From Escherichia coli (GTDB lineage Bacteria; Pseudomonadota; Gammaproteobacteria; Enterobacterales; Enterobacteriaceae), in the NCBI RefSeq assembly GCF_003790525.1, contig NZ_CP033635.1: a stretch of 64,000 bases of DNA. One strand, written 5' to 3'. The position numbers were made by a program, and so were the translations under genes. This document shows, piece after piece, positions 4,126 through 36,268 of this stretch; the stretch's first letter is position 1; each line of letters starts with the position of its first letter. The notes below the pieces were generated by a model. That model did no database searches. It saw only the letters and a program-made list of their open reading frames with translations, and was not told the DNA's origin.

Positions 4126-4986
4126 ATGAGTCAGGCGCTAAAAAATTTACTGACATTGTTAAATCTGGAAAAAATTGAGGAAGGACTCTTTCGCGGCCAG
4201 AGTGAAGATTTAGGTTTACGCCAGGTGTTTGGCGGCCAGGTCGTGGGTCAGGCCTTGTATGCTGCAAAAGAGACCGTCCCTGAAGAGCGGCTGGTACATT
4301 CGTTTCACAGCTACTTTCTTCGCCCAGGCGATAGTAAGAAACCGATTATTTATGATGTCGAAACGCTGCGTGACGGTAACAGCTTCAGCGCCCGCCGGGT
4401 TGCTGCTATTCAAAACGGCAAACCGATTTTTTATATGACGGCCTCTTTCCAGGCACCAGAAGCGGGTTTCGAACATCAAAAAACAATGCCGTCCGCGCCA
4501 GCGCCTGATGGCCTGCCTTCGGAAACGCAAATCGCCCAATCGCTGGCGCACCTGCTGCCGCCAGTGCTGAAAGATAAATTCATCTGCGATCGTCCGCTTG
4601 AAGTCCGTCCGGTGGAGTTTCATAACCCACTGAAAGGGCACGTCGCAGAACCGCATCGTCAGGTGTGGATCCGCGCAAATGGTAGCGTGCCGGATGATCT
4701 GCGCGTTCATCAGTATCTGCTCGGTTACGCTTCTGATCTTAACTTCCTGCCGGTAGCTCTACAGCCGCACGGCATCGGTTTTCTCGAACCAGGAATTCAG
4801 ATAGCGACCATCGACCATTCCATGTGGTTCCATCGCCCGTTTAATTTGAATGAATGGCTGCTGTATAGCGTGGAGAGCACCTCGGCGTCCAGCGCACGCG
4901 GCTTTGTGCGCGGTGAGTTTTATACTCAGGACGGCGTGCTGGTTGCCTCGACCGTTCAGGAAGGGGTAATGCGTAATCACAATTAA
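4126..4986 (+). CDS. tesB: acyl-CoA thioesterase II
   Basis: ORF 4042..4986; start at MSQALKNLL gives 286 aa; double hot-dog thioesterase. Confidence 0.9.
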
Positions 4987-4987
4987 A

Positions 4988-5026
4988 AAAATAGCCGGAG
5001 GTGAAAACCGTCCGGCTGTTTTTTGC
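4988..5026. terminator. bidirectional rho-independent terminator between tesB and amtB
   Basis: A-run, hairpin AGCCGGA...TCCGGCT, then T-run. Confidence 0.75.
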
Positions 5027-5034
5027 AGTGCTTG

Positions 5035-6321
5035 TTACGCGTTATAGGCATTCTCGCCGTGGCTGTTGACGTCCAGCCCTTCTCGCTCCTGTTCTTCCGG
5101 TACACGCAGACCAACCGTCAGATCCGCCAGTTTGTAGCCAATAAACGCCACCACACCGGACCAGACGATCGTAATGGCGATGCTTTCCAGCTGTACCAGC
5201 AACTGATGGCCCATCGTCACACCTTCAGCGAAGCCCACGCCGCCCAGCGAGCTGGCGGCAAAAATCCCGGTCATGATACAGCCGACAATGCCACAAACGC
5301 CGTGCACACCGAAAACATCGCAGGGATCATCCACCCGCAGCAAACGTTTGAGCATGGTAACGCCCCACAAGCCCGCCAGACCAGCTACCACGCCGATAAT
5401 CAACGCGCCGCCAACCCCAATGTAGCCACAGGCTGGCGTCACGCCGACCAGACCGGCAATCGCGCCAGAACACGCTCCCAGCAGTGAAGGCTTACCGCGC
5501 AGCGCCCATTCACCGAAGATCCAGCCAAGAATTGCTGCCGCCGTTGCGACCACAGTATTCACAAATGCCAGTGCTGCGATTTCATTCGCCGTGCCCGCTG
5601 ACCCGGCGTTAAAGCCAAACCAACCGATATAGAGAATGGCAGTCCCGGTGAAGACCATCGGCAGGTTGTGCGGTTTAAACGCCTCTTTGCCGAAGCCCAC
5701 GCGTTTGCCTATCAGATACGCGCCCACCAGACCGGCGATTGCGGCGTTAATGTGCACCACCGTGCCACCCGCGAAATCCAGTGCACCGTGAGAAGCCAGC
5801 AAACCGCCGCCCCAGACCATATGCGCAATCGGAATGTAGGAGAGCGTCAGCCATACCACCACGAAAATCAACACAGCTGAGAAGCGGATTCGTTCCGCCA
5901 GTGCTCCAACTATCAAGCCTACGGTAATGCAGGCAAACGATCCCTGAAACGCTACGTGGATATACTGATAAATGCTGCCCATCACCGCCGTCAGTTCGAT
6001 GTTTTTCAGCATCAACCAGTTAATGTTGCCGAAGAAGTTGTTTCCCTCACCAAACGCCAGCGAGTAACCGTAAACCACCCAGAGAATACAGACCAGTGCA
6101 AACGTCACCGTCACCTGCGTCAGCATCGACAGCACGTTTTTGCCGCGAATCAACCCACCGTAAAACAGGGCAATCCCCGGAATAGTCATAAACAGCACCA
6201 GCGCAGTACAAATCATCATAAACGCATTGTCGGCTTTATCGGCCACCGCAGGTGCAGCCATTACCAGTCCCGGCAGCATCGCCAGTGAAGCAAGCCCAGT
6301 TTTTATCGTCGCTATCTTCAT
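5035..6321 (-). CDS. amtB: ammonium transporter AmtB
   Basis: 428 aa polytopic membrane protein with signal peptide; glnK-amtB operon arrangement. Confidence 0.95.
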   Translation of the reverse strand: MKIATIKTGLASLAMLPGLVMAAPAVADKADNAFMMICTALVLFMTIPGIALFYGGLIRGKNVLSMLTQVTVTFALVCILWVVYGYSLAFGEGNNFFGNINWLMLKNIELTAVMGSIYQYIHVAFQGSFACITVGLIVGALAERIRFSAVLIFVVVWLTLSYIPIAHMVWGGGLLASHGALDFAGGTVVHINAAIAGLVGAYLIGKRVGFGKEAFKPHNLPMVFTGTAILYIGWFGFNAGSAGTANEIAALAFVNTVVATAAAILGWIFGEWALRGKPSLLGACSGAIAGLVGVTPACGYIGVGGALIIGVVAGLAGLWGVTMLKRLLRVDDPCDVFGVHGVCGIVGCIMTGIFAASSLGGVGFAEGVTMGHQLLVQLESIAITIVWSGVVAFIGYKLADLTVGLRVPEEQEREGLDVNSHGENAYNA

Positions 6322-31593: not shown

Positions 31594-32484
31594 ATGATGT
31601 TTAAGCAATACCTGCAAGTAACGAAACCAGGCATCATCTTTGGCAACCTGATCTCGGTGATTGGGGGATTCCTGCTGGCCTCAAAGGGCAGCATTGATTA
31701 TCCCCTGTTTATCTACACGCTGGTTGGGGTGTCACTGGTTGTGGCGTCGGGTTGTGTGTTTAACAACTACATCGACAGGGATATCGACAGAAAGATGGAA
31801 AGGACGAAGAATCGGGTGCTGGTTAAAGGCCTGATCTCTCCTGCTGTCTCGCTGGTGTACGCCACCTTGCTGGGTATTGCTGGCTTTATGCTGCTGTGGT
31901 TTGGCGCGAATCCGCTGGCCTGCTGGCTGGGGGTGATGGGCTTTGTGGTTTATGTCGGCGTCTACAGCCTGTACATGAAACGCCACTCGGTCTACGGCAC
32001 ATTGATTGGTTCGCTCTCCGGCGCAGCACCGCCAGTGATCGGCTACTGTGCGGTAACCGGCGAGTTCGATAGCGGCGCAGCAATCCTGCTGGCTATCTTC
32101 AGCCTGTGGCAGATGCCTCATTCTTATGCCATCGCCATTTTCCGCTTTAAGGATTATCAGGCCGCAAACATTCCGGTACTGCCGGTGGTGAAAGGCATTT
32201 CGGTGGCGAAGAATCACATCACGCTGTATATCATCGCCTTTGCCGTTGCCACGCTGATGCTCTCTCTTGGCGGTTACGCTGGGTATAAATATCTGGTGGT
32301 CGCCGCGGCGGTGAGCGTCTGGTGGTTAGGTATGGCCCTGCGCGGTTATAAAGTTGCTGATGATCGAATCTGGGCGCGCAAGCTGTTCGGCTTCTCTATC
32401 ATCGCCATCACTGCCCTCTCGGTGATGATGTCCGTTGATTTTATGGTGCCGGACTCGCATACGCTGCTGGCTGCTGTGTGGTAA
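31594..32484 (+). CDS. cyoE: heme O synthase (protoheme IX farnesyltransferase)
   Basis: ORF 31549..32484; start [14 protein letters not shown] gives 296 aa; UbiA-family prenyltransferase. Confidence 0.95.
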
Positions 32485-32498
32485 TACAACCTCTCTAT

Positions 32499-32527
32499 AA
32501 AAAAGGTGCTACGGCACCTTTTTTATT
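32499..32527 (+). terminator. rho-independent terminator of the cyo operon
   Basis: AAAAAAGGTGC-TACG-GCACCTTTTTTATT. Confidence 0.85.
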
Positions 32528-32537
32528 GTCTGAGATC

Positions 32538-32564
32538 AGAGATACGGCTAATAACCGTATCTCT
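32538..32564. promoter_or_regulatory. palindromic operator candidate 1 (AGAGATACGG-N7-CCGTATCTCT)
   Basis: Perfect 10-bp-arm inverted repeat just upstream of the -35 box. Confidence 0.5.
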
Positions 32565-32593
32565 TGACAGAGTGAGCATATGCACATAAATTA
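32565..32593 (+). promoter_or_regulatory. sigma70-like promoter of the DUF1778/GNAT operon
   Basis: TTGACA, ~16-17 nt spacer, TAAATT; sits between two related palindromes. Confidence 0.55.
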
Positions 32594-32598
32594 ATCAC

Positions 32599-32613
32599 AC
32601 GGTTGATAGCCGT
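32599..32613. promoter_or_regulatory. palindromic operator candidate 2 (ACGG-N7-CCGT, shares GCCGTAT half-site)
   Basis: Second related inverted repeat just downstream of the -10 box. Confidence 0.45.
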
Positions 32614-32668
32614 ATTATGCATGAGATCGACTCCCTACGATTTCATTCAGTTAATCAAAGAGGTCATA

Positions 32669-32980
32669 ATGCCTGGAAAAACAGTCGCTCTACCCGATAT
32701 CGATAAAACGCTGAAAAATGCGCGGGTTGAACTCAAAACCAGCCCCGACGCCAAAAACAAACTTCGTGAAGCTGCGCAAGCCGTTGGGGTAGATTTAAGC
32801 GCTTTTATTTTGAGCGCAGCTATGGAACGCGCCGAAAGTGTGCTTGATAACCAACGTCGCCGTGAGCTTTCGAATCAAAGCTGGGAACTGATGAACCAAC
32901 TCATCGCTGAACCTGCTCAACCGACGCTCGCCCTCAAGGCGTTAATGAAAAGGAAAAACAGCGATGGTCGACAAGCATGA
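32669..32980 (+). CDS. DUF1778 (TacA/AtaR-like, RHH) antitoxin of a GNAT toxin-antitoxin pair
   Basis: ORF 32603..32980; Met MPGKTVALPDID preceded by AAAGAGG Shine-Dalgarno; ~103 aa; 17-bp overlap with downstream GNAT gene; resembles TacA/AtaR-type antitoxins. Confidence 0.75.
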   Translation: MPGKTVALPDIDKTLKNARVELKTSPDAKNKLREAAQAVGVDLSAFILSAAMERAESVLDNQRRRELSNQSWELMNQLIAEPAQPTLALKALMKRKNSDGRQA

Positions 32981-33506
32981 AGAGATTACTCTGCCCATAG
33001 TCCTCTCCTGTAATTATCAGTCTGATATTACTTATCCTGGGCAAAAACAGTTTGATTGCGGTAACCCTGTTATCGATAAATTTGTACGCGCATCGCTAAA
33101 GAAAAGTGTGCGTAATAGCGACTGTGCTGCTAAAGCTCTTATTGACAGACAAAGTGGTGAACTGATTGGCATCTGTACTTTTACGGCATATTCGCTGGAA
33201 AAACAACGCGTTTCTGGCGTCCTTCAGGGTTCACAACCTTCAGAGATTGGTGTTGTCAGATTAGTCATGTTAGGGGTAGCGCGGAAATATCAAAAGCGGG
33301 GCTTTGGTCAGGACCTACTATGTGATTTTTTTGAACATGTAAAAATAATTCACCGGGCATTACCAATTAAAGGGGTTTATCTTGATGCTGACCCTGCCGC
33401 CATTAACTTTTATACTCGCCTCGGCTTTGTTCAGCTTTCAGCGAGGCCCAATGTTTTCGGTGCTGTACCGATGTTTTTAGCGATTCAGCATATTCTCGCG
33501 GCTTAG
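32964..33506 (+). CDS. GNAT-family acetyltransferase toxin (TacT/AtaT/ItaT-like, predicted aminoacyl-tRNA acetylating)
   Basis: 180 aa; N-terminal FDCG motif; acetyl-CoA binding loop RKYQKRGFGQDLL; C-terminal FYTRLGF as in AtaT-like toxins; translationally coupled to the antitoxin. Confidence 0.75.
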   Translation: MVDKHEEITLPIVLSCNYQSDITYPGQKQFDCGNPVIDKFVRASLKKSVRNSDCAAKALIDRQSGELIGICTFTAYSLEKQRVSGVLQGSQPSEIGVVRLVMLGVARKYQKRGFGQDLLCDFFEHVKIIHRALPIKGVYLDADPAAINFYTRLGFVQLSARPNVFGAVPMFLAIQHILAA

Positions 33507-33561
33507 ATTATTATCGCCTCCGGCCAGGGCTAGTTTTGCCTCAGCCGGGGACTGAGCAGCG

Positions 33562-34497
33562 TTACCACTTTTGTTCAATTGCCCCCGCTTTCAGCAACTC
33601 CACATCCTTGCCGTTAATGGTTGCCGTTGCGGCAACGATTGTGGTCCTTACAGTTGCACAAGATTTTCGCTCAAATTCCGGTTTATAAAGAATTAGAGAC
33701 GAATTACTGGTAAATGAATCAAATATGTAATCAGTAAAGCTAATATTCAGCCGGTTTAAACCGAAAGGCGCGAAGCCAACCGTTTGGTTAATCTCCTTAC
33801 CGGATGGGCTACGAATGCTGAATGTCACGCGAAGATTGGCCACTTCGCCTAATTTATTGGTGGTGGCGAAGAGGCTATCCATGCAGGAAAAACCTTTATC
33901 TAAAAAATTATCCCGCATCCCAGAACGGGTAACCGTGATCACGGGTAACGTATCGTCAACCGTTTTTCTGTCAATCATGTCTTTTCGACATGTAGCCAGA
34001 AAGTCTTCCGGACCACCATAAATGTGGACACCTTTATCAAGATATTCCTTCGCTTTCTTACAATCTACCTCAACATACTGACCATTGGCGTACATCATGC
34101 CCAACCTGGACCATGCTAAATTCACACCGTATTGCGCGGCCTGATTAAATAGTGCATACGCTTTGGCATAATCCACCCGCACCAGCTCACCGTCGTAGTA
34201 GATACTCCCCAGCGCTAACGGAGCTTCTCTATCACCGTGTTTAGCGGCTAACTCAAACCATTTAATCGCTTCCTGAACATCAGGTTTGGTATCAAAGCGA
34301 GGCTGATAATATTCCCAGCCTAACAGGCTCTGCGCGTCGACATCTCCCAATTCAGCCATTTTATGCAGTCTATTTATAACATCGGGCGCAGGTTGACCAC
34401 CGTATATGCTGTCATACAATTCATGCGCTTTCTCGCTTGCCACCACGCATGGTGAAACTATTAGCATTAAAGAAAATAATATTCTTTTAGTTAACAT
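33562..34497 (-). CDS. secreted Sel1-repeat (TPR-like) protein with uncharacterized C-terminal domain
   Basis: ORF 33562..34557; probable start MLTKRILFSLMLIVSPCVVA (signal peptide); several Sel1-like repeats (AAKHGDREAPLALGSIYYDG, AAQYGVNLAWSRLGMMYANGQ); low GC; no K-12 counterpart recalled here. Confidence 0.65.
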   Translation of the reverse strand: MLTKRILFSLMLIVSPCVVASEKAHELYDSIYGGQPAPDVINRLHKMAELGDVDAQSLLGWEYYQPRFDTKPDVQEAIKWFELAAKHGDREAPLALGSIYYDGELVRVDYAKAYALFNQAAQYGVNLAWSRLGMMYANGQYVEVDCKKAKEYLDKGVHIYGGPEDFLATCRKDMIDRKTVDDTLPVITVTRSGMRDNFLDKGFSCMDSLFATTNKLGEVANLRVTFSIRSPSGKEINQTVGFAPFGLNRLNISFTDYIFDSFTSNSSLILYKPEFERKSCATVRTTIVAATATINGKDVELLKAGAIEQKW

Positions 34498-34903
34498 GTA
34501 TACCTTTATGTTCTCTCTGTCATATATTTCCATAATAATTAACCACCAAACATCCATTTAATGAATAAATACAGTACCATAAAGGCCCAAGTAATAAGCA
34601 CACATTTAACCTGAAACATTATCATCGATGTCACCAAATCGTTTATTTAGTGAGATAAAAATAGCATGTTCGCAAGATAAAAAATGCACATAGCAATCAA
34701 GAAATAATATTATTACTTTTGATGTAAAACTATTTAGCTTTAAGAATAATTTTTTCAACATATAGAGCATTCATTTTATGAATGCAAAATAAACATACCT
34801 GACACACAAACTATTCTCCTCTGTAATATTTTCTCATTAACACTCTGTTTACCCAACATGCGCTCCGCACTACACTATGTGGGCATTTTTTTAAGAGGTG
34901 GTA

Positions 34904-36268
34904 ATGAACGATTATAAAATGACGCCAGGTGAGCGGCGCGCGACCTGGGGTTTAGGCACCGTTTTCTCGTTGCGCATGCTGGGCATGTTCATGGTTCTGC
35001 CGGTTCTGACCACGTACGGCATGGCTCTGCAAGGTGCCAGCGAAGCATTAATCGGTATTGCCATTGGTATTTATGGTCTGACTCAGGCCGTTTTTCAGAT
35101 TCCGTTTGGCCTGCTTTCAGACCGCATTGGTCGCAAACCATTAATTGTCGGTGGGCTGGCGGTGTTTGCCGCCGGTAGCGTTATCGCTGCGCTCTCTGAC
35201 TCCATCTGGGGAATTATTCTGGGCCGGGCGCTACAAGGCTCCGGTGCGATTGCCGCTGCCGTTATGGCGCTGCTTTCCGATCTTACGCGCGAACAAAACC
35301 GCACCAAAGCGATGGCGTTTATCGGCGTGAGCTTTGGCATTACCTTTGCCATTGCGATGGTGCTTGGCCCGATCATCACTCACAAACTTGGGCTGCACGC
35401 GCTGTTCTGGATGATCGCTATTCTGGCAACAACCGGCATTGCGTTGACCATTTGGGTTGTGCCCAACAGTAGCACTCACGTACTTAATCGTGAGTCCGGA
35501 ATGGTGAAAGGCAGTTTCAGTAAAGTGCTGGCGGAACCGCGGTTGCTGAAACTCAACTTTGGCATTATGTGTCTACACATGCTTCTGATGTCTACGTTTG
35601 TTGCCCTGCCCGGACAGCTGGCTGATGCGGGGTTCCCGGCGGCTGAACACTGGAAGGTCTATCTGGCGACGATGCTAATCGCCTTTGGCTCGGTCGTGCC
35701 TTTCATTATCTACGCTGAAGTTAAGCGCAAAATGAAGCAAGTCTTTGTCTTCTGCGTCGGATTGATCGTGGTTGCGGAAATTGTGTTGTGGAACGCACAA
35801 ACGCAGTTCTGGCAACTGGTGGTCGGCGTGCAGCTTTTCTTTGTAGCGTTTAATTTGATGGAAGCCCTTCTGCCTTCACTTATCAGTAAAGAGTCGCCTG
35901 CAGGTTACAAAGGTACGGCGATGGGTGTTTACTCCACCAGCCAGTTTCTTGGCGTGGCGATTGGCGGTTCGCTGGGCGGCTGGATTGACGGCATGTTTGA
36001 CGGTCAGGGCGTATTTCTCGCTGGCGCAATGCTGGCCGCAGTGTGGCTGGCAGTCGCCAGTACCATGAAAGAACCGCCGTATGTCAGCAGCTTGCGCATT
36101 GAAATCCCGGCGGACATTGCCGCAAACGAAGCGTTAAAAGTACGTTTGCTGGAAACTGAAGGCGTCAAAGAAGTGTTGATTGCAGAAGAAGAACATTCAG
36201 CGTATGTGAAAATCGACAGCAAAGTGACGAATCGCTTTGAGGTTGAACAGGCAATTCGCCAGGCATAA
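34904..36268 (+). CDS. yajR: MFS transporter YajR
   Basis: ORF 34898..36268; start MNDYKMTPGERRATW gives 454 aa; MFS with C-terminal cytoplasmic domain. Confidence 0.9.
   Translation: MNDYKMTPGERRATWGLGTVFSLRMLGMFMVLPVLTTYGMALQGASEALIGIAIGIYGLTQAVFQIPFGLLSDRIGRKPLIVGGLAVFAAGSVIAALSDSIWGIILGRALQGSGAIAAAVMALLSDLTREQNRTKAMAFIGVSFGITFAIAMVLGPIITHKLGLHALFWMIAILATTGIALTIWVVPNSSTHVLNRESGMVKGSFSKVLAEPRLLKLNFGIMCLHMLLMSTFVALPGQLADAGFPAAEHWKVYLATMLIAFGSVVPFIIYAEVKRKMKQVFVFCVGLIVVAEIVLWNAQTQFWQLVVGVQLFFVAFNLMEALLPSLISKESPAGYKGTAMGVYSTSQFLGVAIGGSLGGWIDGMFDGQGVFLAGAMLAAVWLAVASTMKEPPYVSSLRIEIPADIAANEALKVRLLETEGVKEVLIAEEEHSAYVKIDSKVTNRFEVEQAIRQA

Follow-up and report, generated by a model that had tools for sequence, protein, structure and literature searches.

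Within a 64,000-nucleotide stretch of Escherichia coli DNA (assembly GCF_003790525.1, contig NZ_CP033635.1; hereafter the window), the interval between cyoE (31594–32484, plus strand) and yajR (34904–36268, plus strand; PGAP coordinates) carries a minus-strand open reading frame (ORF) that ends at 33562, with its stop codon at 33562–33564. This gene is predicted to encode an exported protein of 311 residues in which a short solenoid of Sel1 repeats precedes a C-terminal domain whose modelled fold resembles that of IrmA, the secreted 'interleukin receptor mimic' of uropathogenic E. coli (UPEC), which binds the interleukins IL-2, IL-4 and IL-10 in vitro. What is new here is the likeness to IrmA of a domain that had not been recognised before, together with the age and paralogous make-up of its locus. 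The gene and its parts are as follows.

33562–34497, minus strand: coding sequence of the 311-residue Sel1/IrmA-like protein, predicted to be exported (ORF list, PGAP, homologue N-termini, ribosome-binding site, and the ratio of nonsynonymous to synonymous substitution rates, dN/dS)
34438–34497, minus strand: predicted signal peptide, residues 1–20 (MLTKRILFSLMLIVSPCVVA, then SEK), of the Sec/signal peptidase I type (rule-based analysis of the n-, h- and c-regions; AlphaFold confidence)
34018–34437, minus strand: Sel1-repeat solenoid, residues ~21–160, with N-terminal capping helices and three canonical Sel1 repeats (Pfam, phmmer, AlphaFold2)
33943–34017, minus strand: linker helix, residues ~161–185, with the conserved Cys170 (alignments; model helix 166–178)
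33565–33942, minus strand: predicted IrmA-like fibronectin type III (FNIII)/immunoglobulin (Ig) beta-sandwich, residues ~186–311, with the conserved Cys205 and Cys280 and the motifs TNKLGEVANLRV, PFGxN and AATATINGK
34498–34893, minus strand: AT-rich intergenic region upstream of the gene (396 bp, 29.8% G+C), shared with the divergent yajR and presumed to hold the promoter of the Sel1 gene or gene array (composition)

The original prediction placed the gene at 33562–34557, which is correct at the lower end and 60 nt too long at the upper. From ATG 34557, the first one in frame, the product would run to 331 residues, but this ATG has no Shine–Dalgarno sequence, whereas AAGG lies 5 nt upstream of ATG 34497. 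In a genome of 100% identity RefSeq, too, begins the protein at 34497 (WP_012311701.1, under the name 'tetratricopeptide repeat protein'), the homologues compared all begin at MLTKR or MLPKR, equivalent to the Met at 34497, and DNA homology to a two-gene version of the locus restarts exactly at this position. Because the annotation, the homologue N-termini, the AAGG and the point at which homology resumes agree, we place the true start, as read from sequence, at ATG 34497; the resulting 311 residues accord with the roughly 310 first proposed.

The gene is AT-rich relative to its backbone, as had also been proposed, with a G+C (GC) content of 44.4% (44.6% at third codon positions, GC3) as against 54.0% (GC3 68.4%) in cyoE, 52.9% (GC3 59.3%) in yajR and 51.0% over the whole window. 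Its upstream region is 78% identical to the stretch that precedes a longer paralogue in E. coli CP057686, and a promoter scan of 34498–34893 returned promoter-like sites no commoner than in shuffled sequence. Downstream, the gene converges, as originally described, with a toxin–antitoxin pair on the opposite strand, whose plus-strand end is at 33506, across a spacer of 55 bp. A hairpin between itaT and the Sel1 gene was considered as a bidirectional terminator and rejected, its fold being no better than those of shuffled sequences (z −1.35) and lacking a T-run. An Rfam scan of 32400–35000 gave zero matches.

Domain architecture of the protein

The N-terminus has the layout of a Sec signal peptide, in which an n-region, MLTKR (charge +2), is followed by a 16-residue uncharged stretch (mean Kyte–Doolittle hydropathy 2.4) and a VVA/SEK cleavage site after residue 20. 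A rule-based check found this three-part layout in 15 of 15 homologues, whose sequences have diverged, and the predicted local distance difference test (pLDDT) of the AlphaFold model falls below 50 over residues 1–19. The signal peptide of the original prediction is borne out by this check and looks functional, and its features argue for export of the 311-residue protein. A lipoprotein, processed by signal peptidase II, was considered and set aside: the sequence does not fit the lipobox [LVI][ASTVI][GAS]C. The window allele reads V-S-P-C, in which Pro occupies position −1 relative to the one Cys there, and in the O104 allele and most other Escherichia alleles that Cys is replaced by Ser or Gly (Ser in the common E. 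coli allele).

Three matches to the Sel1 repeat (Pfam PF08238; E = 2.6e-6, 2.2e-3 and 4.6e-3) substantiate the several repeats that had been noticed from the sequence. A phmmer search of the PDB matched solved Sel1 proteins, the best being EsiB/C5321 (4bwr, E = 3.9e-39), with all matches lying inside residues 26–173; no NCBIfam model came near its curated cut-off (MerG, for example, scored 29.8 bits against 350). The full-length AlphaFold2 model, built with 16 homologues, has a mean pLDDT of 86 and a predicted template modelling score of 0.83, and it orders the chain as capping helices, three helix pairs (53–64/74–86, 92–102/110–122 and 126–138/146–155; pLDDT of the block ~84–98), a linker helix at 166–178 and a beta-sandwich of ~8 strands. 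Repeat-profile matches and a modelled alpha/alpha solenoid of antiparallel helix pairs together place the N-terminal half among the Sel1-like repeat proteins. Solenoids of this kind are a standard platform for protein or peptide binding, and EsiB/C5321, HcpC (1ouv), LpnE-like proteins, ExoR, MotX and AlgK likewise carry one behind a signal peptide. The EsiB/C5321 chain, however, comprises 467 residues of Sel1 repeats, whereas the window protein has only three repeats and an additional C-terminal beta-sandwich that none of the matched Sel1 structures covers, the matches ending by residue 173.

The mature protein has four cysteines, at positions 146, 170, 205 and 280, which are conserved across most of the family and fit an oxidising compartment. 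Cys146, in the last Sel1 repeat, and Cys170, in the linker helix, are kept in most aligned homologues and are invariant in a seven-sequence subset; the two may form a disulfide.

The C-terminal domain, of ~126–150 residues, was unrecognised in the original prediction and stays so at the level of sequence: searches of Pfam, NCBIfam, PADLOC and PDB sequences with the domain of the E. coli protein gave nothing significant. By sequence the domain is rare: a HMMER scan of 1.84 billion cluster representatives yielded 23 clusters at E ≤ 1e-3, and two of these are repetitive sequences that match falsely. Structure prediction, which had been suggested as a check, points to a relative. A separate AlphaFold2 model of residues 161–311, built with 17 diverse homologues (pLDDT 82), was compared with the PDB by Foldseek, and at E ≤ 1e-3 it matched only two chains, both of IrmA (8.7e-5). 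We took IrmA from CFT073 and built a family alignment for profile comparison; hhalign aligned the domain family profile with the IrmA profile weakly (E = 0.0041 over 95 columns, probability 8%), placing Cys205 and Cys280 on Cys46 and Cys105 of the IrmA precursor, that is, Cys21 and Cys80 of its mature form. The Cys21–Cys80 disulfide of IrmA is unusual for FNIII folds (PMC4807369). Cys205 and Cys280 are nearly invariant in the 17 sequences, and the alignment suggests that they form the equivalent bond. Two of these 17 sequences match the Pfam family IrmA (PF18673) at E ≤ 1e-3, the better one reaching 6.2e-5. In the predicted structure the C-terminal domain has an IrmA-like FNIII/Ig beta-sandwich fold, and on the strength of that model it is probably a distant homologue of IrmA.

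IrmA itself (C1275, PF18673, PDB 5ek5) has in common with the window protein the aligned cysteine pair, a Sec signal and, weakly, FG and ATxxxNG motifs, and both are confined largely to Enterobacterales. The IrmA dimer is domain-swapped through its C-terminal strand. The differences are considerable: IrmA is a stand-alone protein of ~13 kDa (~150 residues) whereas the window domain is fused behind Sel1 repeats, their sequence identity is only 15–20% with the E. coli protein below Pfam significance, and irmA lies in a mobile flu-yeeR-irmA cluster, in contrast to the chromosomal yajR–cyoE context of the window gene. In CFT073 the pathogenicity-island region with agn43 and irmA has, ~10 kb upstream of irmA, a further gene for a SEL1-like repeat protein (WP_000516335.1; 39724–40860 of the CFT073 locus compared).

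History of the yajR–cyoE locus

Related proteins lie at the same locus in other Enterobacteriaceae. The genome scan for the domain used a seven-sequence alignment; its two peptide patterns missed Salmonella, which was recovered by a Foldseek search of the AlphaFold database. Every Sel1 protein of the cyoE–yajR loci below carries the C-terminal domain (hmmsearch E from 1e-40 to 1e-64).

Salmonella enterica: yajR – unannotated 343-residue protein – Sel1 protein of 503 residues – Sel1 protein of 489 residues – cyoE; no toxin–antitoxin pair
Escherichia albertii: yajR – short form of 311 residues – unannotated 325-residue protein, predicted to be exported – cyoE; no toxin–antitoxin pair
Pseudocitrobacter: IclR – long form of 484 residues – short form of 308 residues – ItaT – ItaR – cyoE
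Another enteric metagenome bin: yajR – long form of 478 residues – short form of 308 residues – TacA-like gene only – cyoE
Minority E. coli haplotype CP057686: yajR – long form of 499 residues – short form of 310 residues – ItaT – ItaR – cyoE

By pairwise identity the family falls into three lineages, one short and two long (long-A and long-B). Closest to the short form is long-B, with 41–45% identity and an alignment to long-B residues 222–484, so that the E. coli protein is an N-terminally truncated paralogue. The long paralogues (503 and 489 residues in Salmonella, 499 in CP057686, 484 in Pseudocitrobacter) have the same C-terminal domain (hmmsearch E from 1e-40 to 1e-59) and share with the window protein the last Sel1 repeats, the four cysteines, the signal peptide and the locus; they differ in having ~180 more N-terminal residues, made up of extra Sel1 repeats and a helical region.

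Compared with CP057686, the window lacks exactly the long gene (~499 residues) and retains its upstream region. The junction is marked by one further feature.

34506–34523, minus strand: deletion scar, in which a vestigial ribosome-binding site and ATG (34523–34521) of the missing long paralogue head a five-codon mini-ORF (ATGACAGAGAGAACATAA; MTERT, then stop) (comparison with the two-gene locus)

E. albertii carries the same scar, and tblastn found no coding remnant of the long paralogue in 34498–34893.

Substitution patterns bear on whether what was left behind still works. The dN/dS of the Sel1 gene is 0.34 against O104:H4, 0.22 against CP057686 and 0.27 against E. albertii, as compared with 0.00–0.05 for the flanking cyoE and yajR, and the two domains of the protein taken separately give 0.2–0.46. 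Values in this range among homologues indicate a real gene and not a chance ORF. In comparison with Pseudocitrobacter, the window protein is 58% identical while ItaT is 89% identical and ItaR 78–86%, according to which alignment is used. Judged by these rates the gene is functional and under purifying selection, yet fast-evolving, as is common in exposed or exported binding proteins.

That the gene is instead a decaying remnant, a truncated paralogue left over from the long-gene deletion and without present function, is improbable. The ~180-residue extension of the long forms is missing, about 75% of E. coli have lost the gene altogether, the dN/dS exceeds that of the housekeeping neighbours, and Shigella sonnei carries only gene fragments of 130–193 residues (clusters P0012, P0014, P0180 and P0188, from S. 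sonnei and others), which are consistent with pseudogenization in Shigella. The dN/dS is nevertheless well below 1 in both domains in four comparisons, and 1363 of the 1369 carriers retain an intact ORF of full length. The short form is, moreover, a separate lineage conserved in Escherichia, E. albertii, Pseudocitrobacter and the other enteric bin (57–67% identity), which argues that the truncation is old and maintained.

Synonymous divergence (dS) places the gene alongside its neighbours. Between the window and O104:H4, dS is 0.071 for the Sel1 gene, 0.101 for cyoE and 0.089 for yajR, and between the window and E. albertii the corresponding values are 0.39, 0.26 and 0.25. As the family occupies the same locus across genera and its dS tracks that of the flanks, we conclude that the gene is long established in the chromosome and has been lost by many E. 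coli. On this comparison of sequences the locus is ancestral, lost repeatedly or anciently, and is not recent cargo.

The cyoE–yajR gap holds further unannotated genes with signal-peptide-like N-termini and no Pfam matches, namely those for the 325-residue protein of E. albertii (5048–6025 of the E. albertii locus, in place of ItaRT) and the 343-residue protein of Salmonella (4483–5514 of the Salmonella locus). The two proteins are not related, and it looks as though the gap accumulates genes that are low in GC and code for exported proteins. Outside Enterobacteriaceae, in Pectobacterium, Affinibrenneria and Achromobacter, the gene lies elsewhere in the genome and has no constant partner.

Distribution and the ItaRT neighbour

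Within E. coli the gene is one part of a larger segment that is present or absent as a whole, the other part being the convergent toxin–antitoxin pair.

32525–34807, no strand assigned: presence/absence block of ~2.28 kb relative to K-12-type genomes, spanning itaR, itaT, and the Sel1 gene with the greater part of the region upstream of it (aligned against the empty site)
32669–33506, plus strand: type II toxin–antitoxin pair, ItaR (32669–32980) and ItaT (32964–33506), given as context and not functionally tied to the Sel1 gene (PGAP DUF1778 and GNAT)

The Sel1 gene was found in 1369 of 5426 complete E. coli genomes, covering at least 80% of its length in 1363 of them, and the whole block in 1367, always between cyoE and yajR. 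Identity to the window allele is at least 99% in 106 of the 1369, 95–99% in 1244 (about 97% in the rows listed) and 80–90% in 19. Carriers include O104:H4, many Shiga toxin-producing E. coli, bovine, avian and environmental strains, and T7 Express (B-type); in the IAI39 orthologue the C-terminal domain is 100% identical. The adjacency of the gene to ItaRT, which was described from E. coli HS and BL21(DE3) (PMC6125619), suggests that these two strains carry it as well. The block is absent from the K-12-type strain AML003_ev01 and from the carbapenem-resistant Enterobacterales (CRE) isolate MNCRE44. Presence in about 25% of complete genomes runs counter to the conserved occurrence in all E. coli that would have refuted the original prediction, and the range of carriers shows no restriction to a pathotype.

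The gene had been suggested to be independent cargo of the same island as the toxin–antitoxin pair. Low GC (42.5% for the block against 51% for the window) and patchy presence stand in favour of that view, but the hallmarks of mobility are missing: the block contains only three ORFs, has no integrase, insertion sequence or tRNA gene, and a search around 32525–34807 found no flanking direct repeats. Nor do the data indicate recent arrival, given that the family sits at yajR–cyoE in Salmonella, E. albertii and Pseudocitrobacter and that its dS is comparable to that of the flanks. The island view is in this respect corrected: the locus is ancestral, and its absence from K-12 and most other E. coli reflects loss.

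ItaT is a GNAT toxin that acetylates Ile-tRNAIle. All 180 residues of the toxin encoded in the window align with PDB 7byy (E = 1.3e-115), which identifies the neighbouring pair as the characterised ItaRT system. Across genera the pair is the separable element of the locus, and within E. coli it forms a single presence/absence block with the Sel1 gene. Their joint gain and loss in E. coli (1367 versus 1369 genomes) at a distance of 55 bp might suggest that the Sel1 protein serves the ItaRT module as a third component or accessory, which we hold to be most improbable. The genes are convergent and so not co-transcribed; the window protein is predicted to be exported whereas ItaT acts on cytoplasmic aminoacyl-tRNA (PMC6125619); no PADLOC defence model gave a convincing match; and a third component is largely refuted by E. 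albertii and Salmonella, which have the Sel1 gene at the locus without the pair.

Several smaller observations concern the block and its edges. Upstream of itaR, and directly beyond the cyoE terminator, two 17-nt arms (32542–32558 and 32599–32615) separated by 40 nt form an inverted repeat with 88% complementarity, a possible ItaR operator or structured leader. Over the final 86 bp ahead of yajR, 34808–34893, carriers and K-12-type empty sites are only ~70% identical, as against ~96–98% in the yajR and cyoE coding sequences, so that the regulatory region of yajR may exist as two old haplotypes. Plasmid carriage was rejected, since the only 'plasmids' with the full gene (PLSDB CP061270.1, NZ_OL790696.1 and CP099174.1) are records of 1.2–4.8 Mb that are probably mislabelled chromosomes or chromosome fragments. 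Phage carriage was rejected likewise: the sole 'phage' match, OR851378.1 ('Salmonella phage S.Kent 1-2-1', UNVERIFIED_ORG, 1993 bp), consists almost wholly of a 503-residue Sel1 gene that is 94% identical to the Salmonella chromosomal paralogue, and the record is thus probably host DNA.

Candidate functions

Taken as a whole, the gene probably encodes an exported, non-enzymatic, two-domain binding protein that is an old truncated paralogue. The 311-residue precursor would be exported by Sec and cleaved by signal peptidase I after Ala20 to give a soluble mature form of ~32.6 kDa. Its N-terminal half, a short Sel1 solenoid of three repeats and caps, would hold one partner, and its C-terminal half, a disulfide-bonded FNIII/Ig-like beta-sandwich, would offer a second binding surface or mediate IrmA-style strand-swap dimerization. 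Such a protein would most likely act as an adaptor in the periplasm and might also be released to the medium like IrmA. Its gene would be the N-terminally truncated 'short' member of an old one- or two-gene Sel1/IrmA-like array that has occupied the yajR–cyoE gap since before the divergence of Salmonella and Escherichia and was deleted in most E. coli, the surviving copies travelling with ItaRT without depending on it. The proposed binding function, and the lack of enzymatic activity, are suggested by the domains and by the absence of a match to any catalytic family in Pfam, NCBIfam or PADLOC. In the periplasm its role would be akin to that of ExoR, MotX or EnhC-type Sel1 proteins and, outside the cell, by analogy, to that of IrmA and EsiB. 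A part in host interaction or envelope processes, as raised in the original prediction, is plausible.

Several points count against this interpretation. At the level of sequence the case for homology to IrmA is weak: the E. coli domain reaches only i-E 1.6 against the Pfam IrmA family and the profile comparison only 8% probability, which leaves predicted structure as the main basis of the relationship. With a pI of 9.0 the C-terminal domain is basic, in contrast to mature IrmA (acidic, pI 4.7); the acidic surface characteristic of IrmA is thus not a feature of the window domain, and the ligands of the two probably differ. Apart from its own paralogues, the gene has no neighbour common to Affinibrenneria, Achromobacter and two metagenome contigs, and without a partner conserved across genera the genomic context gives no functional clue. 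With its low GC and strongly AT-rich promoter region, the gene may be largely silent under laboratory conditions, and a literature search found no experiment or publication on the window protein. The tag STM0438, listed among Salmonella virulence genes, was left out of the argument because its correspondence to a Salmonella paralogue is uncertain.

A related but distinct possibility is that the protein is a released host-interaction or immune-modulating factor, which reaches the medium and binds a host protein in the manner of EsiB and IrmA. EsiB is a Sel1 protein that binds secretory IgA. It is also the best solved sequence relative of the Sel1 half, and IrmA, the best structural relative of the C-terminal half, is itself found in culture supernatant with only a Sec signal (PMC4807369). 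Fast evolution, seen both in dN/dS relative to the flanks and in the lower identity to the Pseudocitrobacter orthologue than that of ItaT, is typical of exposed proteins, and the AT-rich promoter region would be expected of a gene controlled by H-NS and Hha, as irmA is described to be (PMC9431211). We nonetheless judge a host factor rather unlikely. The EsiB match is generic repeat similarity, made up of five overlapping stretches, and no secretion system is encoded nearby. The gene is found in commensal, laboratory (T7 Express and, by ItaRT adjacency, BL21(DE3) and HS) and environmental strains and is absent from the clinical isolate MNCRE44 and the rest of the ~75% that lack the block, and is therefore not tied to a pathotype. 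Relatives in the plant pathogens Pectobacterium and Affinibrenneria and in Achromobacter argue against a mammal-specific ligand. Because of these relatives, the commensal and laboratory carriers and the surface charge opposite to that of IrmA, we favour an envelope or adaptor role for the exported binding protein over a mammal-specific immune one.

A more speculative proposal, which we think unlikely, is that the yajR–cyoE gap holds an old, hitherto unrecognised family of exported Sel1 proteins whose C-terminal domain is a chromosomal relative, and perhaps the source, of the mobile IrmA, and whose strand-swapped dimers, possibly including long/short heterodimers, bind a specific host or envelope ligand; the IrmA fold would then have a definite biological role that goes further than cytokine binding in vitro. 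The usual view of IrmA is that of a UPEC vaccine antigen with a unique structure and of a 'cytokine receptor mimic'. If a chromosomal Sel1 family, found in Salmonella, Escherichia, Pseudocitrobacter and Pectobacterium, does carry the IrmA fold and its disulfide, IrmA would gain relatives in which its real ligand and its origin could be studied, and the presence of the gene in T7 Express, and by adjacency to ItaRT in HS and BL21(DE3), would make experiments easy. Practical importance is otherwise modest, as there is no link to a pathotype and the mechanism is drawn from domains only; the window protein is best described as a variant of two known kinds, an exported Sel1-repeat protein and an IrmA-like domain.

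Two orthologues in UniProt, A0A0H3MM38 (from IAI39, entered with the 331-residue start) and A0A376ZPS8, are named 'putative zinc-dependent hydrolase'. As no search returned a hydrolase domain or metal-binding motif, this name appears unfounded.

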